From the NCBI RefSeq assembly GCF_044324875.1, contig NZ_CP172185.1: DNA of 64,000 nucleotides; one strand, 5' to 3'. The position numbers were made by a program, and so were the translations under genes. Within the stretch, counting starts at the first letter, position 1, and each line of letters begins with the position of its first letter. Below the pieces are notes generated by a model. The model saw nothing but the letters and a program-made list of their open reading frames with translations, ran no database searches and was not told where the DNA came from. The DNA comes from Escherichia coli (GTDB lineage: Bacteria > Pseudomonadota > Gammaproteobacteria > Enterobacterales > Enterobacteriaceae). Positions 7,168 through 62,595 of the stretch are shown in pieces.

Positions 7168-7692
7168 ATGAAACGTAAACTTATTGCCTTTGTGATTCTG
7201 GCTACATCATCCTGTGGATATGCAGCCACCAAAGATGTAACAATGAATCTTGTTGATAGTGACGGAAAAGAGCGAAATATTGGTAAAATAACCATCCAGA
7301 AGACACCCTACGGGCTGCTGTTCACCCCTGATCTTCACTCCTTACCCGCCGGCATTCATGGTTTTCATGTACATGAAAACGCAAGTTGTGCTCCTGCCCT
7401 GAAAGATGGAAAAACTGTCGCTGCTTTATCTGCAGGTGGTCACTTTGACCCGGAAAAAACAGGGAAGCATCTCGGTCCATGGTCTCCTGATGGCCACCTG
7501 GGTGATCTCCCTGCGCTTTATGTCACTCATGACGGAAAAGCAACCTACCCGGTGCTTGCGCCAAGACTATCTGAATTAAAGGAGCTCGATGGCCGTTCGC
7601 TAATGCTCCACGCAGGAGGTGATAATCATGATGACCATCCTGAACCTCTAGGTGGCGGTGGTGCAAGAATTGCCTGTGGTATCATCCCATAA
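7168..7692 (+). CDS. sodC: Periplasmic Cu,Zn superoxide dismutase (SodC-family paralog, diverged from the K-12-type SodC as I recall it)
   Basis: Signal peptide plus Cu/Zn-SOD motifs [34 protein letters not shown] 7168. Confidence 0.85.
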
Positions 7693-7820: not shown

Positions 7821-8045
7821 TCAGTGTTTTATTACCTTAATCTTTTTACGGCATTCTTCAGCTCTTGCGCATGCTATTTTTTCACCTGTTTCATAACATT
7901 GCTGGCAGCCTAATCCAAATTTCATCGCCATATCATAACCTTCCCGAAAACCTCGGAACCACGCGTTACGAAGGTATTCATCATATTCCCCGCAGTCAAT
8001 AATAACCATTTTATTTTCATGGGATTTTCCGGTATTCTCACTCAT
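7821..8045 (-). CDS. Small Cys-rich hypothetical protein (74 aa)
   Basis: ATG at 8043-8045 preceded by GAGG; MSENTGKSHENKMVIIDCGEYDEYLRNAWFRGF...CQQCYETGEKIACARAEEC with paired Cys; no family recognised. Confidence 0.35.
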   Translation of the reverse strand: MSENTGKSHENKMVIIDCGEYDEYLRNAWFRGFREGYDMAMKFGLGCQQCYETGEKIACARAEECRKKIKVIKH

Positions 8046-9629: not shown

Positions 9630-10149
9630 GGGCAAATCCAATTCCGATTTCTCTGTTGAAGCGATGCATTTATATTTAAATATTCACCTGTCATTGAATT
9701 TTATTTGAAATAGGAGAAAATCTCCTCCTGTACTACAGATAACCCGGAATGTTCCTCGAAAGAAAATTCTGGCGCAGAATTCACGCCCGGTTCTGTTCAA
9801 CATCATGCAGGATAACGATACCGAAACGTTAAACTCTGGCAATTCTCGTGTTATACACAGGCAGGAGTGATTACTACGGTAAGAATTGCTGAAAAGGGGA
9901 GAACACTGAAGGCCTTATTCGCGAAGAATAAAGGAGACATTTCATGTAAATTATTATCAGAGATAACCTTCTCCAGGCGCTTTTGTTCGCTTCCTGAATT
10001 GCTACCTGATACATATTTACGGGATGCCAGCCTGGTGACTATAACTCCGAAAAGACCGATTATTGTATTGCGTGCATCCGGCATGTTTACAATGTACGCT
10101 GGTATCTAACGGAGTCTGACACAGATGCACGCAGGTGTATATTTTAACG

Positions 10150-21741: not shown

Positions 21742-22628
21742 TGCCACTGCTGGATAAGCTGCGTAAGCTGTACGGGGTCGGACCGGTATGCAGTGAACTA
21801 CATATTGCCCCGTCAACGTATTACCACTGTCAGCAACAGCGACATCATCCTTATAAACGCAGTGCCCGTGCGCAGCGCGATGACTGGCTGAAGAAAGAGA
21901 TACTGCGCGTATACGATGGGAATCATCAGGTATACGGTGTGCGTAAAGTCTGGCGTCAGTTGTTACGGGAAGGAATCAGGGTAGCCAGATGTACAGTGGC
22001 GCGCCTCATGGCGGTTATGGGACTTGCCGGTGTTCTCCGGGGTAAAAAGGTCCGCACTACCGTCAGCCGGAAAGCCGTTGCCGCAGGCGACCGCGTAAAC
22101 CGTCAGTTTGTGGCAGAACGTCCTGACCAGTTGTGGGTGGCTGATTTTACTTACGTCAGCACATGGGAGGGGGTCGTCTATGTGGCGTTCATCATTGATG
22201 TGTTTGCCGGATACATCGTGGGGTGGCGGGTCTCATCGTCTATGGAAACGACATTCGTGCTGGATGCTCTGGAGCAGGCGTTATGGGCCCGTCGACCGTC
22301 CGGCACAGTCCATCACAGTGATAAAGGTTCTCAGTATGTATCGCTGGCCTACACACAGCGGCTTAAGGAAGCCGGATTACTGGCATCAACAGGAAGTACT
22401 GGTGACTCGTATGACAACGCGATGGCGGAGAGCATCAATGGCCTTTACAAAGCGGAGGTAATACACCGTAAGAGCTGGAAAAACCGGACAGAAGTGGAGC
22501 TGGCCACACTCACGTGGGTGGACTGGTATAACAATCGACGATTGCTGGAAAGGCTGGGCCATATCCCACCGGCAGAAGCAGAAAAATCTTATTATGCTTC
22601 CATCGGAAACGATGATCTGGCAGCCTGA
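21738..22628 (+). CDS. IS629-like transposase OrfB (DDE integrase core)
   Basis: 296 aa overlapping orfA stop; [10 protein letters not shown]...HHSDKGSQY...[10 protein letters not shown]. Confidence 0.85.
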
Positions 22629-54323: not shown

Positions 54324-55001
54324 ATGATGTACCACATTCCCGGCGTGCTATCGCCACAGGACGTCGCCCGTTTTCGCGAACAACTGGAACAAGCCGAATG
54401 GGTGGATGGACGCGTCACCACTGGCGCACAAGGTGCGCAAGTTAAGAACAATCAACAGGTAGACACCCACAGCACGTTATACGCCGCCCTGCAAAATGAG
54501 GTGCTGAACGCGGTTAACCAACATGCTTTGTTCTTTGCCGCGGCCTTGCCGCGTACCCTTTCCACGCCGCTGTTTAATCGCTATCAGAACAATGAAACCT
54601 ATGGTTTTCATGTGGATGGCGCAGTACGCAGCCATCTACAAAACGGCTGGATGCGCACTGACCTTTCTGCCACGCTGTTTTTAAGCGATCCAGAAAGCTA
54701 CGACGGCGGCGAACTGGTCGTTAATGACACCTTCGGGCAACATCGGGTAAAACTCCCGGCAGGCGATCTGGTGTTGTATCCCTCCAGCAGCTTGCATTGC
54801 GTGACACCCGTAACCCGCGGCGTACGAGTGGCATCATTTATGTGGATCCAGTCGATGATCCGTGATGATAAAAAGCGCGCCATGCTGTTTGAACTGGACA
54901 ACAATATTCAGTCGCTGAAAAGCCGCTACGGCGAAAGTGAAGAGATCCTGTCGCTGCTCAATCTTTATCATAATCTGCTGCGGGAATGGTCGGAGATCTG
55001 A
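54324..55001 (+). CDS. ybiX: PKHD-type Fe(II)/2-oxoglutarate-dependent hydroxylase YbiX
   Basis: Start taken at [17 protein letters not shown] / [10 protein letters not shown] motifs. Confidence 0.85.
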
Positions 55002-58309: not shown

Positions 58310-60460
58310 TTAACGCCGCCGACGGCGTGGGGATTTCGTTTTTTCTTTCTTTTTAACTATACCTTCAGGGACTTCCGGTTGCTCTATCGGAAATACCGGT
58401 AATGCATCCAGTAGTCGCTTGCCATAATTTTTGGTCAGCAAGCGTTTGTCGTAAATCACCACTTCGCCCCAGCAACCGTGGCTTCGAATCAGTCGCCCAA
58501 CCTGCTGAATCAGGTTAAACGAGGCGCTCGGCAGGCTTTGCACCTCAAACGGATAGCGGTTGAGGCTTTTCAGCCATTCCCCTTCGGTGATCACCACCGG
58601 GCTGTCGATGGGCGGAAAAGCGATTTTGTGGATATGCACCTGGCTTAGCAGATCGCCTTTCAAATCAAGCCCTTCGGCAAATGACTGCAAGCCCACCAGC
58701 ACGCTACGCTCACCGTTGGCAACGCGTTTGCGGTGCAGTTCAACTAAACGGTAACGCGGCTGATCGCCCTGCACCAGCAACATCAGGCGTAAATCCGTCA
58801 CATAGTCGAGAAACCACTGCATCGCCCGTCCGCTGGCAAACAGTACCAACATACCGAGATGTTTTTTGCTCTCCACCTGCTCACGGAAAAAGGCTGCCAT
58901 TTCAGCAATGTGCTGCTCTTCGTTGTCGATGGAAGGCTCAACGCGCATCCGGGGAATAACAATTTTGCCCTGTTCGCAGTGGTTAAAGGGGGAATCCAGC
59001 GCCACAAAACGGTCGCCCGCTTTCTCTTTCAGCCCGCTCATCTCCTGCAAACGCGAAAAACTGTTCAGCGAACGTAAGGTCGCGGAAGTGATAATAATGT
59101 GCGGAATACTGCGCCACAGCAGCCTTTCCAGCTGATCGCTGACACGAATACCCACACAGTGAAACCAGAGATGTAGCTGCCCTTCGCGCTCTTCCCGCGT
59201 CGCCCATTTGGTCACCGGCGCACCGGAAGATTGCGCCAGAGACGCCAGCCGCCAGAGTTTGCTTTGCGCCTCGAACATCCCCAGCGCGCGGTTCATCTGC
59301 AAAATCAACCGATGCAGACGTACAATGTCATGGCTGCCGGTTTTCTCACTTAAATCGTTAAGAAATAACTCCGCCAGACCACGCAGCATCTCGGTGAGTT
59401 TTGCCAGCCGCTGGCAGATCTCCAGCACTTCATCAGGTAGTTCGCCCATCGCAAAACGGTGTTCTGCCTCCTGCCCGGCAGGCATGTAGAGATTGAGAAT
59501 GTTGTTTAACGAGGCGATAAGCTCATACAACTCTTCACAATGCGCATTCAAACGCTCGGGGATCGCCAGCGGTGGGATGGTCTTCGGGCGAAACTGCTCC
59601 ATACAGGTAGCGACCAGTTTCGTGAACAAGTCCAGTTGCAGCCGATACCAGGGCGCGGTGATTTCGGCGCTCATCTCCAGCGCATCCCGCGCCACATCCG
59701 GCAGGTGATGACCTTCGTCCAGCACCAGCAGTAAATTTTTCGGGTCAGGCAATACGGCTTCGCTTTCCATCGCCGCCATCACCAGCGCATGGTTTGCCAC
59801 CACCACTTCCGCTTCCTGAATCTCCCGACGAGCGACAAAAAACGGGCATTCGCGATAGTAATAACAGTTGCGGTTGAGGCAGCTGGCTTTGTCGGTACTT
59901 AAACGACGCCAGAGATCGTCATCTATAGCAATATCCGTATGATCGCGCAGACCATCCCATTTATAAGTATCGAGATCGCCCTTAAGTTTCGCACAACGTT
60001 TTTGCTCTTCCTGATTATTTGGCGTCAGTTCGTCGTCAAGAAACGCCAGCAGATCCTGTTGCGTGGGTTCAGTACTGGCAAGCGCCGTCAGATTACGCGG
60101 GCAAACGTAGCGCCCACGCCCAAAAGCGGCAGTGAATTTAAGATCGGGAATGATCTTTTTCAGCAGCGGTAAATCTTTGCTGTAAATCTGATCCTGCAAC
60201 GCCACGTTGGCGGTACTCACCACCAGCGTTTTTTGCTCTTCGCGGGCAATGGCGATGCCGGGGATCAAATAGGAGAGCGTTTTCCCAACGCCGGTGGGAG
60301 CTTCAATCGCCAGATGCCGCCCTTCTTCTCCGGCCAGCGTTTTGGCGACGTCCGCAATCATCTGCCGCTGCGGCGCACGGGGAATAAAGTCGGGGATCTG
60401 TTCCTGAAGCGCCTTATACCAGGCGGCAATTTGCGCTTTAAGCGCGGCGGTTAATGCCAT
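58310..60460 (-). CDS. dinG: ATP-dependent DNA helicase DinG
   Basis: Start taken at MALTAALKAQIAAWYKALQ (ATG 60458-60460); helicase motif I EAPTGVGKT, DEGHH box, Fe-S Cys cluster region. Confidence 0.9.
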   Translation of the reverse strand: MALTAALKAQIAAWYKALQEQIPDFIPRAPQRQMIADVAKTLAGEEGRHLAIEAPTGVGKTLSYLIPGIAIAREEQKTLVVSTANVALQDQIYSKDLPLLKKIIPDLKFTAAFGRGRYVCPRNLTALASTEPTQQDLLAFLDDELTPNNQEEQKRCAKLKGDLDTYKWDGLRDHTDIAIDDDLWRRLSTDKASCLNRNCYYYRECPFFVARREIQEAEVVVANHALVMAAMESEAVLPDPKNLLLVLDEGHHLPDVARDALEMSAEITAPWYRLQLDLFTKLVATCMEQFRPKTIPPLAIPERLNAHCEELYELIASLNNILNLYMPAGQEAEHRFAMGELPDEVLEICQRLAKLTEMLRGLAELFLNDLSEKTGSHDIVRLHRLILQMNRALGMFEAQSKLWRLASLAQSSGAPVTKWATREEREGQLHLWFHCVGIRVSDQLERLLWRSIPHIIITSATLRSLNSFSRLQEMSGLKEKAGDRFVALDSPFNHCEQGKIVIPRMRVEPSIDNEEQHIAEMAAFFREQVESKKHLGMLVLFASGRAMQWFLDYVTDLRLMLLVQGDQPRYRLVELHRKRVANGERSVLVGLQSFAEGLDLKGDLLSQVHIHKIAFPPIDSPVVITEGEWLKSLNRYPFEVQSLPSASFNLIQQVGRLIRSHGCWGEVVIYDKRLLTKNYGKRLLDALPVFPIEQPEVPEGIVKKKEKTKSPRRRRR

Positions 60461-60474
60461 GAGAAAACCTGAAA

Positions 60475-60494
60475 TACTGTATAAACAGCCAATA
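60475..60494 (-). promoter_or_regulatory. LexA (SOS) box of dinG
   Basis: Reverse complement of 60475-60494 is tattggctgtttatacagta, the non-canonical dinG SOS box as I remember it, 15 bp upstream of the start. Confidence 0.7.
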
Positions 60495-60579
60495 TTGTGG
60501 CATTTTTCGGTTTTCAGGGGTAATGGTTTTTCTGTTTCTGGAAAGCGACTCGCAATAACCACCAACATAATGCGGTTTA

Positions 60580-61062
60580 ATGCCCGTTCGAGCACAAAGG
60601 ATCCAACACGTCATGCAAGACACCACCATAAATTTCTACAGCACCGGCGATGACTACGGTGATTTTTCTAACTTTGCCGCCTGGCCCATTAAGGTTGACG
60701 GGAAAACCTGGCCCACCTCAGAACACTATTTCCAGGCACAAAAATTCCTTGATGAAAAATACCGCGAAGAGATCCGTCGGGTTTCTTCCCCTATGGTCGC
60801 CGCTCGCATGGGGCGTGATCGTTCCAAGCCACTTCGTAAAAACTGGGAGTCGGTCAAAGAACAGGTGATGCGAAAAGCGCTTCGCGCTAAATTCGAACAA
60901 CATGCAGAACTGCGTGCGCTCTTGCTGGCAACCGCGTCCGCAAAACTGGTTGAGCATACGGAAAATGATGCTTACTGGGGAGACGGTGGTAATGGTAAGG
61001 GCAAGAATCGACTGGGCTACCTTTTAATGGAGTTGCGTGAACAATTGGCTATAGAGAAGTAA
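60580..61062 (+). CDS. ybiA: NADAR-family N-glycosidase YbiA
   Basis: 160 aa; MPVRAQRIQHVMQDTTINFYS...WPTSEHYFQAQKF. Confidence 0.85.
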   Translation: MPVRAQRIQHVMQDTTINFYSTGDDYGDFSNFAAWPIKVDGKTWPTSEHYFQAQKFLDEKYREEIRRVSSPMVAARMGRDRSKPLRKNWESVKEQVMRKALRAKFEQHAELRALLLATASAKLVEHTENDAYWGDGGNGKGKNRLGYLLMELREQLAIEK

Positions 61063-61214
61063 CATCTCGGGTGACTTATGGGCGATAAAACAGAGAAATC
61101 TTTTTGCCGCGTTCTCAAATTGCTGACAAGTGCTTGTTGTGAAATGCCGGATGCGGCGCAAACTGAACTGCACCCCAAATGTTGGACATAATCTGACATC
61201 TGAAGGTGCAGTTT

Positions 61215-61736
61215 ATGAAACATTCATTTGAAGTAAAACTTGCCGCTGTAAATCACTACCTGGCCGGTCATGCAGGCATCATTTCTACGGCAAAACTCTT
61301 TCAACTTTCTCACACCAGCCTCTCACACTGGATTAATCTTTTTCTTCTTCACGGTCCTCGGGCACTGGATTGCAGACACAAGCGTAGCTATTCTCCTGAA
61401 GATAAACTTTGCGTGGTTCTTTATGCTCTCGGGCATTCTGAGTCTCTACCCCGGGTAGCTGCCCGGTTTAACATTCCCAGCCACAACACGGTTAAAAACT
61501 GGATAAAAGGCTACCGCAAATCTGGTAATGAGGCCTTTATCAGGCGCTGGAAGGAGAAAAGCATGACCCGTTCTGATGATACCCATGAAAACGAGGCAAA
61601 CATGACGCCGGAAGAGATGAAGAATGAGCTGCGTTATCTTCGCGCAGAAAATGCATATCTGAAAGCCATGCAGGAGCATCTCCTGGAAAAAAAGCGCCAG
61701 GAGCTGGAGAAAAAACGAAAGTCATCCGGAGCCTGA
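61215..61736 (+). CDS. IS150-like transposase OrfA
   Basis: MKHSFEVKLAAVNHYLAGHAG..., two HTH repeats, C-terminal leucine zipper; poly-A slippery run near 61688. Confidence 0.8.
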   Translation: MKHSFEVKLAAVNHYLAGHAGIISTAKLFQLSHTSLSHWINLFLLHGPRALDCRHKRSYSPEDKLCVVLYALGHSESLPRVAARFNIPSHNTVKNWIKGYRKSGNEAFIRRWKEKSMTRSDDTHENEANMTPEEMKNELRYLRAENAYLKAMQEHLLEKKRQELEKKRKSSGA

Positions 61737-61840
61737 GGTGCGGACACTGCCAGTCTGACCTGTTAAAGGCTGCAGGGCTGGCCAGAAGCACGCTGTACTA
61801 CCAGCTGTCACTGCAGAAGGCTAAGGACAAGTATGCTGAT

Positions 61841-62595
<755 letters not shown>

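Follow-up and report, generated by a model that had tools for sequence, protein, structure and literature searches.

Two separate classical repressor operators, one for LexA at dinG and one for Fur at fiu, almost certainly lie in the stretch of E. coli core chromosome contained in the window (the whole 64-kb DNA sequence that was analysed), and both are already known, as standard examples from the SOS and Fur regulons that hardly vary within the species. A preceding sequence-only reading of the window had placed a non-canonical LexA site 15 bp upstream of dinG and a Fur-box-like sequence at 51869-51897 upstream of fiu, and had taken both to agree with what is known of these genes. The LexA site was read on the minus strand with its last base at -15, the Fur sequence was exact and contained the two top Fur matches of the window, and both were identical to E. 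coli K-12, where they correspond to the published asymmetric LexA operator of dinG and the published Fur cluster of fiu. Identity with K-12, matrix scores, chance expectations and cross-species conservation were established directly in our analysis. For LexA binding and damage induction at dinG, and for the Fur ChIP-exo peak and the derepression of fiu when fur is lost, we rely on published work with the identical K-12 sequences, and we infer the promoter elements and start sites of both genes.

Gene context of the two operators

The core chromosome forms the right-hand part of the window (~46.5-64 kb), as judged from the ORF list, complete-genome matches and RefSeq annotation, and is oriented opposite to K-12 coordinates 829-846 kb, with the gene order glnP, glnQ, ybiO, rlmF, mcbA, fiu, ybiX, ybiI, ybiJ, hcxB, ybiB, dinG, ybiA and rhlE (Table 1). 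Gene identities were assigned from the RefSeq annotation of K-12 and of strain 118UI, together with complete-genome matches and the ORF list. Both ybiX and ybiI form one Fur-repressed unit with fiu (PMC10164565).

Table 1. Positions of genes, operators and associated sequence elements in the window.
Feature	Sequence	Position	Strand	Basis or remark
Genomic island		1-46454		Right end inside the glnH-glnP spacer
ybiO		48024-50276	+	ORF list, annotation
-35-like hexamer (fiu)	GTGATA	51849-51854	+	16 nt 5' of GATAAT; putative role
Fur site 1	AGTGATAATGCTTATCAAA	51868-51886	+	Centre 51877 (-123), 13.9 bits, 1 mismatch to 7-1-7
-10-like hexamer (fiu)	GATAAT	51871-51876	+	Inside Fur site 1
Weaker intermediate Fur site		51874-51892		Centre -117, 6.2 bits, 6-bp phase
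Fur site 2	TATCAAAATTATTATCACT	51880-51898	+	Centre 51889 (-111), 14.2 bits, 2 mismatches to 7-1-7
fiu CDS, catecholate siderophore receptor (760 aa)		52000-54282	+	ORF list, annotation
ybiX ORF		54288-55001		3' of fiu; ORF list
dinG CDS, ATP-dependent DNA helicase (716 aa)		58310-60460	-	ORF list, translation, RefSeq annotation of matching genomes
dinG SOS box (LexA operator)	TATTGGCTGTTTATACAGTA	60475-60494	-	Direct reading, K-12 identity, HI, conservation
Consensus half of the dinG box	TTATACAGTA	60475-60484	-	dinG-proximal
Non-consensus half of the dinG box	TATTGGCTGT	60485-60494	-	dinG-distal
Extended -10-like element, TGnCACAAT	TGCCACAAT	60494-60502	-	Last base is position 1 of the box; conservation
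ybiA		60580-61062	+	ORF list, annotation
IS1397		61164-62593		Between ybiA and rhlE

The right end of the island lies 38 nt past the stop position of glnH and 101 nt ahead of glnP, so that glnPQ are split from glnH and from the promoters of glnH, and this island/glnP junction is rare (4 of 5420 complete genomes). Because the island separates glnPQ from glnH, and because IS1397 has entered between ybiA and rhlE, the core block is not fully native. The further claim of the sequence-only reading, that the two sites confirm this block to be still under its native regulation, therefore goes too far: two cis-elements tell nothing of the other genes of the block, or of LexA, RecA and Fur, which lie outside the window. 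In addition, 5401 of 5421 complete E. coli genomes share, without a mismatch, the 66-mer that extends from the dinG start codon through the box to 26 nt farther upstream; it is the default of the species, so its presence is uninformative. The result matters little in itself, this part of the window being ordinary E. coli core chromosome with regulatory sites recognisable by eye, and the cross-species footprints of both operators are useful as a sanity check.

The asymmetric LexA operator of dinG

On the minus strand the dinG start codon occupies 60460-60458, with 14 nt between it and the box; the interval 60458-60494 first marked for this site runs from the start codon through the first base of the box. 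The dinG-ybiA spacer (119 bp) differs from that of K-12 by one substitution, outside the box, and is fully identical to that of strain 118UI. In terms of the strict CTG-N10-CAG rule, the right half of the box carries CAG and the left half TTG, yet the site is a known member and a documented exception. Against the perfect LexA palindrome it has five mismatches, which is why a search of the window for that palindrome with up to three mismatches returned no matches. At its upstream end the box adjoins the conserved TGnCACAAT element, a putative core promoter of dinG. A simple sigma-70 scan upstream of dinG found no -35/-10 pair, and a role of TGCCACAAT as an extended -10 element would explain this absence.

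The Berg-von Hippel heterology index (HI) is the usual measure for LexA boxes in the field. Our LexA matrices were built from the 16 other published boxes in Table 4 of PMC3009722, with dinG excluded. The dinG box gave an HI of 7.36 in its best orientation and 12.33 in the other; the former value falls among those of the training boxes (0.3-7.6), stays under the working limit of 15 given in PMC11002266, and ranks first among the ~64,000 positions of the window; chance alone would give 0.01 sites of this quality in a simulated 64-kb sequence. The symmetrised log-odds matrix gave 13 bits, which is rank 3 in the window, behind two intragenic or island sequences, and slightly less than any of the 16 training boxes scored; a borderline score of this kind is expected because the operator is without the invariant C. 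Other LexA-like matches at 50791-50810 (in rlmF), 30293-30312 (in the island) and 58394-58413 (in the 3' end of dinG) were set aside because they lie inside coding sequence or the island and are without supporting evidence.

Conservation was assessed with one DinG scan of species-representative genomes, which yielded 80 loci from the Enterobacteriaceae (Escherichia, Citrobacter, Kluyvera, Klebsiella, Raoultella, Enterobacter, Kosakonia and others, with none from Salmonella). All 80 species had the box, and in 77 the gap between it and the ATG was 13-14 nt. It falls within a 27-nt block, TGCCACAATAGTGGCTGTTTATACAGTA, that is almost invariant across the set; the sequence farther upstream is unconserved. 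Positions 4-20 of the box are nearly invariant, including the whole spacer and the GGCTGT next to position 3, and the consensus half ACAGTA and the upstream TGCCACAAT are each invariant or nearly so. At position 3, where the canonical box has C, three Escherichia species carry T and E. whittamii carries A; the other 76 species, all outside Escherichia, carry G. The TTG of the non-canonical box is thus specific to Escherichia, with GTG in the other genera, which is a small addition to what was known of this operator.

A LexA dimer bound to the asymmetric 20-bp box would repress dinG. Since the box shares its first base with the end of the extended -10-like element and stops 14 nt short of the ATG, bound LexA would lie over the start region and probably block initiation. 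Following DNA damage, RecA-ssDNA filaments would promote self-cleavage of LexA, and dinG would be derepressed a few-fold. The deviation of the distal half (TTG for CTG), alongside a proximal half that keeps the consensus ACAGTA, suggests a weak to moderate operator, and the asymmetric box may accordingly confer moderate repression. Lewis and Mount (1992), as cited in PMC8265657 among others, is the primary paper for the 'asymmetric dinG operator', the experimental status of which is taken here from secondary citations. The dinG box is listed among the SOS-box motifs upstream of UV-induced genes (PMC3009722), and ciprofloxacin raises E. coli dinG expression, with a log2 fold change of up to 1.7 (PMC11002266).

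As to the origin of the asymmetry, the GGCTGT, the spacer and TGCCACAAT are more constrained than LexA recognition alone predicts. For this reason it is conceivable, if rather doubtful, that the asymmetry reflects bases shared with the extended -10 promoter and the start region, and not a decayed half-site, or that another factor reads the embedded CTGT-N4-ACAG dyad. A more radical reading, that the block is kept mainly as core promoter and 5' leader (extended -10, start site and ribosome-binding region), with the LexA resemblance secondary and of little regulatory consequence, appears very improbable. It would account for conservation that reaches 8 nt past the box into TGCCACAAT and that also takes in the box spacer, on which LexA imposes little constraint, as well as for the variation of the canonical-C base between genera (T, A or G), the modest induction of dinG in E. 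coli and the borderline symmetrised score. Against it, the exact 20-mer is described in PMC8265657 as an experimentally characterised SOS box (LexA operator) with TTG replacing CTG; dinG is damage-induced in E. coli and Salmonella alike; and the near-invariance of ACAGTA in 80 species is accompanied by the top HI of the window. Moreover, promoter overlap and operator function at dinG are not mutually exclusive, and we retain the box as a LexA operator.

The phased Fur array of fiu

The Fur-box sequence of fiu, GTGATAATGCTTATCAAAATTATTATCAC, lies on the plus strand, 103-131 nt 5' of the fiu ATG. The interval 51864-51898 is identical to K-12, and the three strain-specific substitutions in the fiu spacer relative to K-12 (at ~51813, 51842 and 51903) all fall outside the array. 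For scoring, a symmetrised 19-bp matrix was built from 13 independent, experimentally verified K-12 Fur sites with coordinates from Table 4 of Chen et al. 2007 (PMC2189734); the coordinate conversion was validated by the fact that 11 of the 13 sites were centred exactly on a 7-1-7-like dyad. The top two matrix matches of the 64-kb window (14.2 and 13.9 bits) are both in the fiu spacer, 12 bp apart, and together with the intermediate site they overlap in 6-bp phase. At ~14 bits, both fall short of the 18-29 bits that the training sites, chosen as the strongest of the genome, reached in leave-one-out scoring. The fiu sites match the 7-1-7 consensus TGATAATNATTATCA with one and two mismatches, and they are two of four such matches in the window, against 0.2 expected. 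None of 100 simulations with the composition of the window produced two sites of 13 bits or more spaced 6 or 12 bp apart, and one of 100 with an AT-rich composition did. Other Fur-like matches, at 7620, 7998, 9945 and 22317, are all in the island.

A syntenic Fiu-like match was kept in 28 of the 80 loci (81-98% protein identity), one of them partial, and the array was present in all 27 full-length orthologous promoters, from ~8 genera, with site centres from -102 to -126. With the other Escherichia rows left out, identity to the window was 0.82 over 51868-51898 versus 0.36-0.51 in the flanks. A second conserved block and an ArcA ChIP peak were also noted 40-60 bp 5' of the array.

Chen et al. 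2007 (PMC2189734) assigned fiu a predicted Fur cluster of 17.2 bits, with four sites in 37 bp and the strongest of them at -123 (coordinate 840877 of U00096.2). A Fur ChIP-exo peak, P24, at 840869-840893 (U00096.2) was scored as fiu-ybiX repression in the supplement of Gao et al. 2023 (PMC10164565); taking the K-12 fiu ATG at 840754, it maps to window positions 51861-51885, onto site 1. In fur deletants the log2 fold change of fiu was 5.5 in MG1655 and 5.2-10.0 across nine strains (36- to 1000-fold), with co-induction of ybiX and ybiI (PMC10164565). The literature also places fiu in the Fur core regulon and reports Fur repression of a lacZ fusion to the fiu promoter. A full-text literature search for the fiu Fur sequence string found no paper.

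Iron-loaded Fur dimers would occupy the overlapping array at 51868-51898 in 6-bp phase, an array that would span both the -10-like hexamer and the position where a fiu-ybiX(-ybiI) promoter probably starts transcription. The presence of GATAAT inside site 1, with GTGATA upstream of it, fits repression by promoter occlusion, although in the simple sigma-70 scan this pair, with 9 of 12 consensus matches, was not above chance; the -35-like hexamer is partly conserved across genera. When iron is scarce, Fur would leave the array and the fiu operon would be strongly induced. The phased array would give tight repression, in keeping with the size of the derepression in fur mutants.

It might be argued that at fiu the 'Fur box' is AT-rich promoter sequence that resembles the Fur consensus by composition, with iron control exerted from elsewhere or with nearby factors (ArcA, CRP, H-NS) at work. 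The spacer has a G+C content of 39%, an AT-rich null yields ~4 single sites of at least 13 bits per 64 kb, the ArcA peak and the second conserved block lie close by, and Chen et al. 2007 (PMC2189734) report neither a footprint nor a gel shift for fiu. We nonetheless consider this explanation extremely improbable: phased pairs are nearly absent under the same AT-rich null, the K-12 ChIP-exo peak falls on the site, loss of fur derepresses fiu in all nine strains (PMC10164565), and both the sequence and the position of the array are kept in 27 species. That the LexA and Fur matches are both functionless products of chance, for which the borderline symmetrised LexA score alone could be cited, can be dismissed, given chance expectations of 0.01 for the LexA site and ~0 for the Fur pair, their positions directly 5' of genes known to be regulated by LexA and Fur, and their deep conservation.

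Comparison with known operators

The dinG operator of the window shares with that of E. coli K-12 all 20 bases, the strand and the 14-nt distance to the ATG, and is the same element in another strain. In Salmonella enterica, dinG likewise has a single LexA box 14 bp from the ATG, with an HI of 10.08, and is induced 10.6-fold by nalidixic acid (PMC8072944). Relative to the canonical SOS box TACTG(TA)5CAGTA (recA, sulA, umuD and others), the dinG box has in common the 20-bp dyad, the AT-rich centre and probably the promoter-proximal position. Its right half is a perfect match to the canonical gammaproteobacterial SOS consensus, whereas the left half, TATTGGCTGT, departs from it in having T where CTG has its invariant C.

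For fiu, the strongest published site of the K-12 Fur cluster (-123) coincides with the centre of site 1, and the substitutions in the spacer are the difference between the two promoters. The array also resembles the classical Fur promoters (entC, fepA-fes, fhuA, cirA) in having 7-1-7/GATAAT-type repeats over a putative -10 region, a 6-bp phase and an arrangement suited to occlusion. Notwithstanding these similarities, the individual fiu sites are weaker, by their matrix scores, than the strongest verified Fur sites.

Sequence variation at the dinG operator

The asymmetric LexA operator of dinG (60475-60494, minus strand) carries TTG in place of the canonical CTG owing to a T at position 3 of the box (window 60492). 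Comparison of the dinG loci of 80 Enterobacteriaceae species showed this T to be specific to Escherichia. E. whittamii has A at the same position, and the 76 species outside Escherichia have G; the remainder of the non-consensus half (60485-60494) and the spacer were invariant or nearly so across these loci.

In E. coli TUM13064, the ISL3-family element ISEc53, with a ClbS/DfsB-like gene as cargo, sits within the dinG SOS box. The insertion point is equivalent to window 60488/60489, so that the box loses its non-consensus half together with the putative -10 element.

Island, insertion sequence and allelic variation around the core block

In place of the K-12 neighbourhood (glnH, dps, rhtA and ompX), the left of the window is occupied by a genomic island, the right end of which matches a CP4-like module (GTPase, DUF932, DUF4942), for which YeeU/CbtA is annotated in a matching genome. 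The junction with the core (46454/46455) lies within the glnH-glnP spacer, thereby separating glnPQ from glnH. Of 5420 complete E. coli genomes, only 4 share this junction. The match ended just upstream of ybiA (window approximately 60555-61062) in about 2000 of the 5421 complete E. coli genomes, where either a divergent allele of the NADAR family or some other sequence is found instead; the dinG promoter side was unaffected in these genomes. Strains ECA64 and CB6837 carry IS1397 in an identical position between ybiA and rhlE, with 99.9% identity.

Further LexA-like and Fur-like matches

Three other LexA-like sequences scored at least as high as the dinG box with a symmetrised LexA matrix. The weaker Fur-like matches of the island, which either had two mismatches to the 7-1-7 consensus or scored 10-11.5 bits, lay close to genes for a Cu/Zn superoxide dismutase and for IS3-family transposases.

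Coordinates of the island, the insertion sequence and the additional regulator-like matches
Feature	Window position	Location	Description
Genomic island	1-46454		ROK regulator, GDPD, ABC transporter, Cu/Zn superoxide dismutase, IS3-family transposases, LysR regulator
LexA-like	30293-30312	island	CTG-N10-CAG fit or near fit
LexA-like	50791-50810	inside rlmF	CTG-N10-CAG fit or near fit
LexA-like	58394-58413	dinG 3' end	CTG-N10-CAG fit or near fit
Weaker Fur-like	7620-7634, 7998-8016, 9945-9959, 22317-22335	island	
IS1397 (IS3 family)	61164-62593 (1.43 kb)	between ybiA and rhlE	insertion relative to K-12 and 118UI

The region upstream of fiu

The best match to the fiu upstream region (51740-52100) was 98.9%, and no complete E. 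coli genome reached 99% identity or more; the three substitutions private to the window (near 51813, 51842 and 51903) all fall outside the Fur array.

Besides this array, a further deeply conserved block was observed at 51814-51840 (aatgtaaataaatgtatttcttttt), with an identity of 0.85 in a comparison of 24 species from other genera. In published ArcA ChIP-seq data, the peak centres assigned to fiu, at U00096.2 positions 840921 and 840928, correspond to window 51826-51833, inside this block, and an ArcA box at this peak is not listed by Park et al. 2013. The block contains two TGTA(A/T) repeats 11 bp apart, a spacing which is that of ArcA direct repeats.
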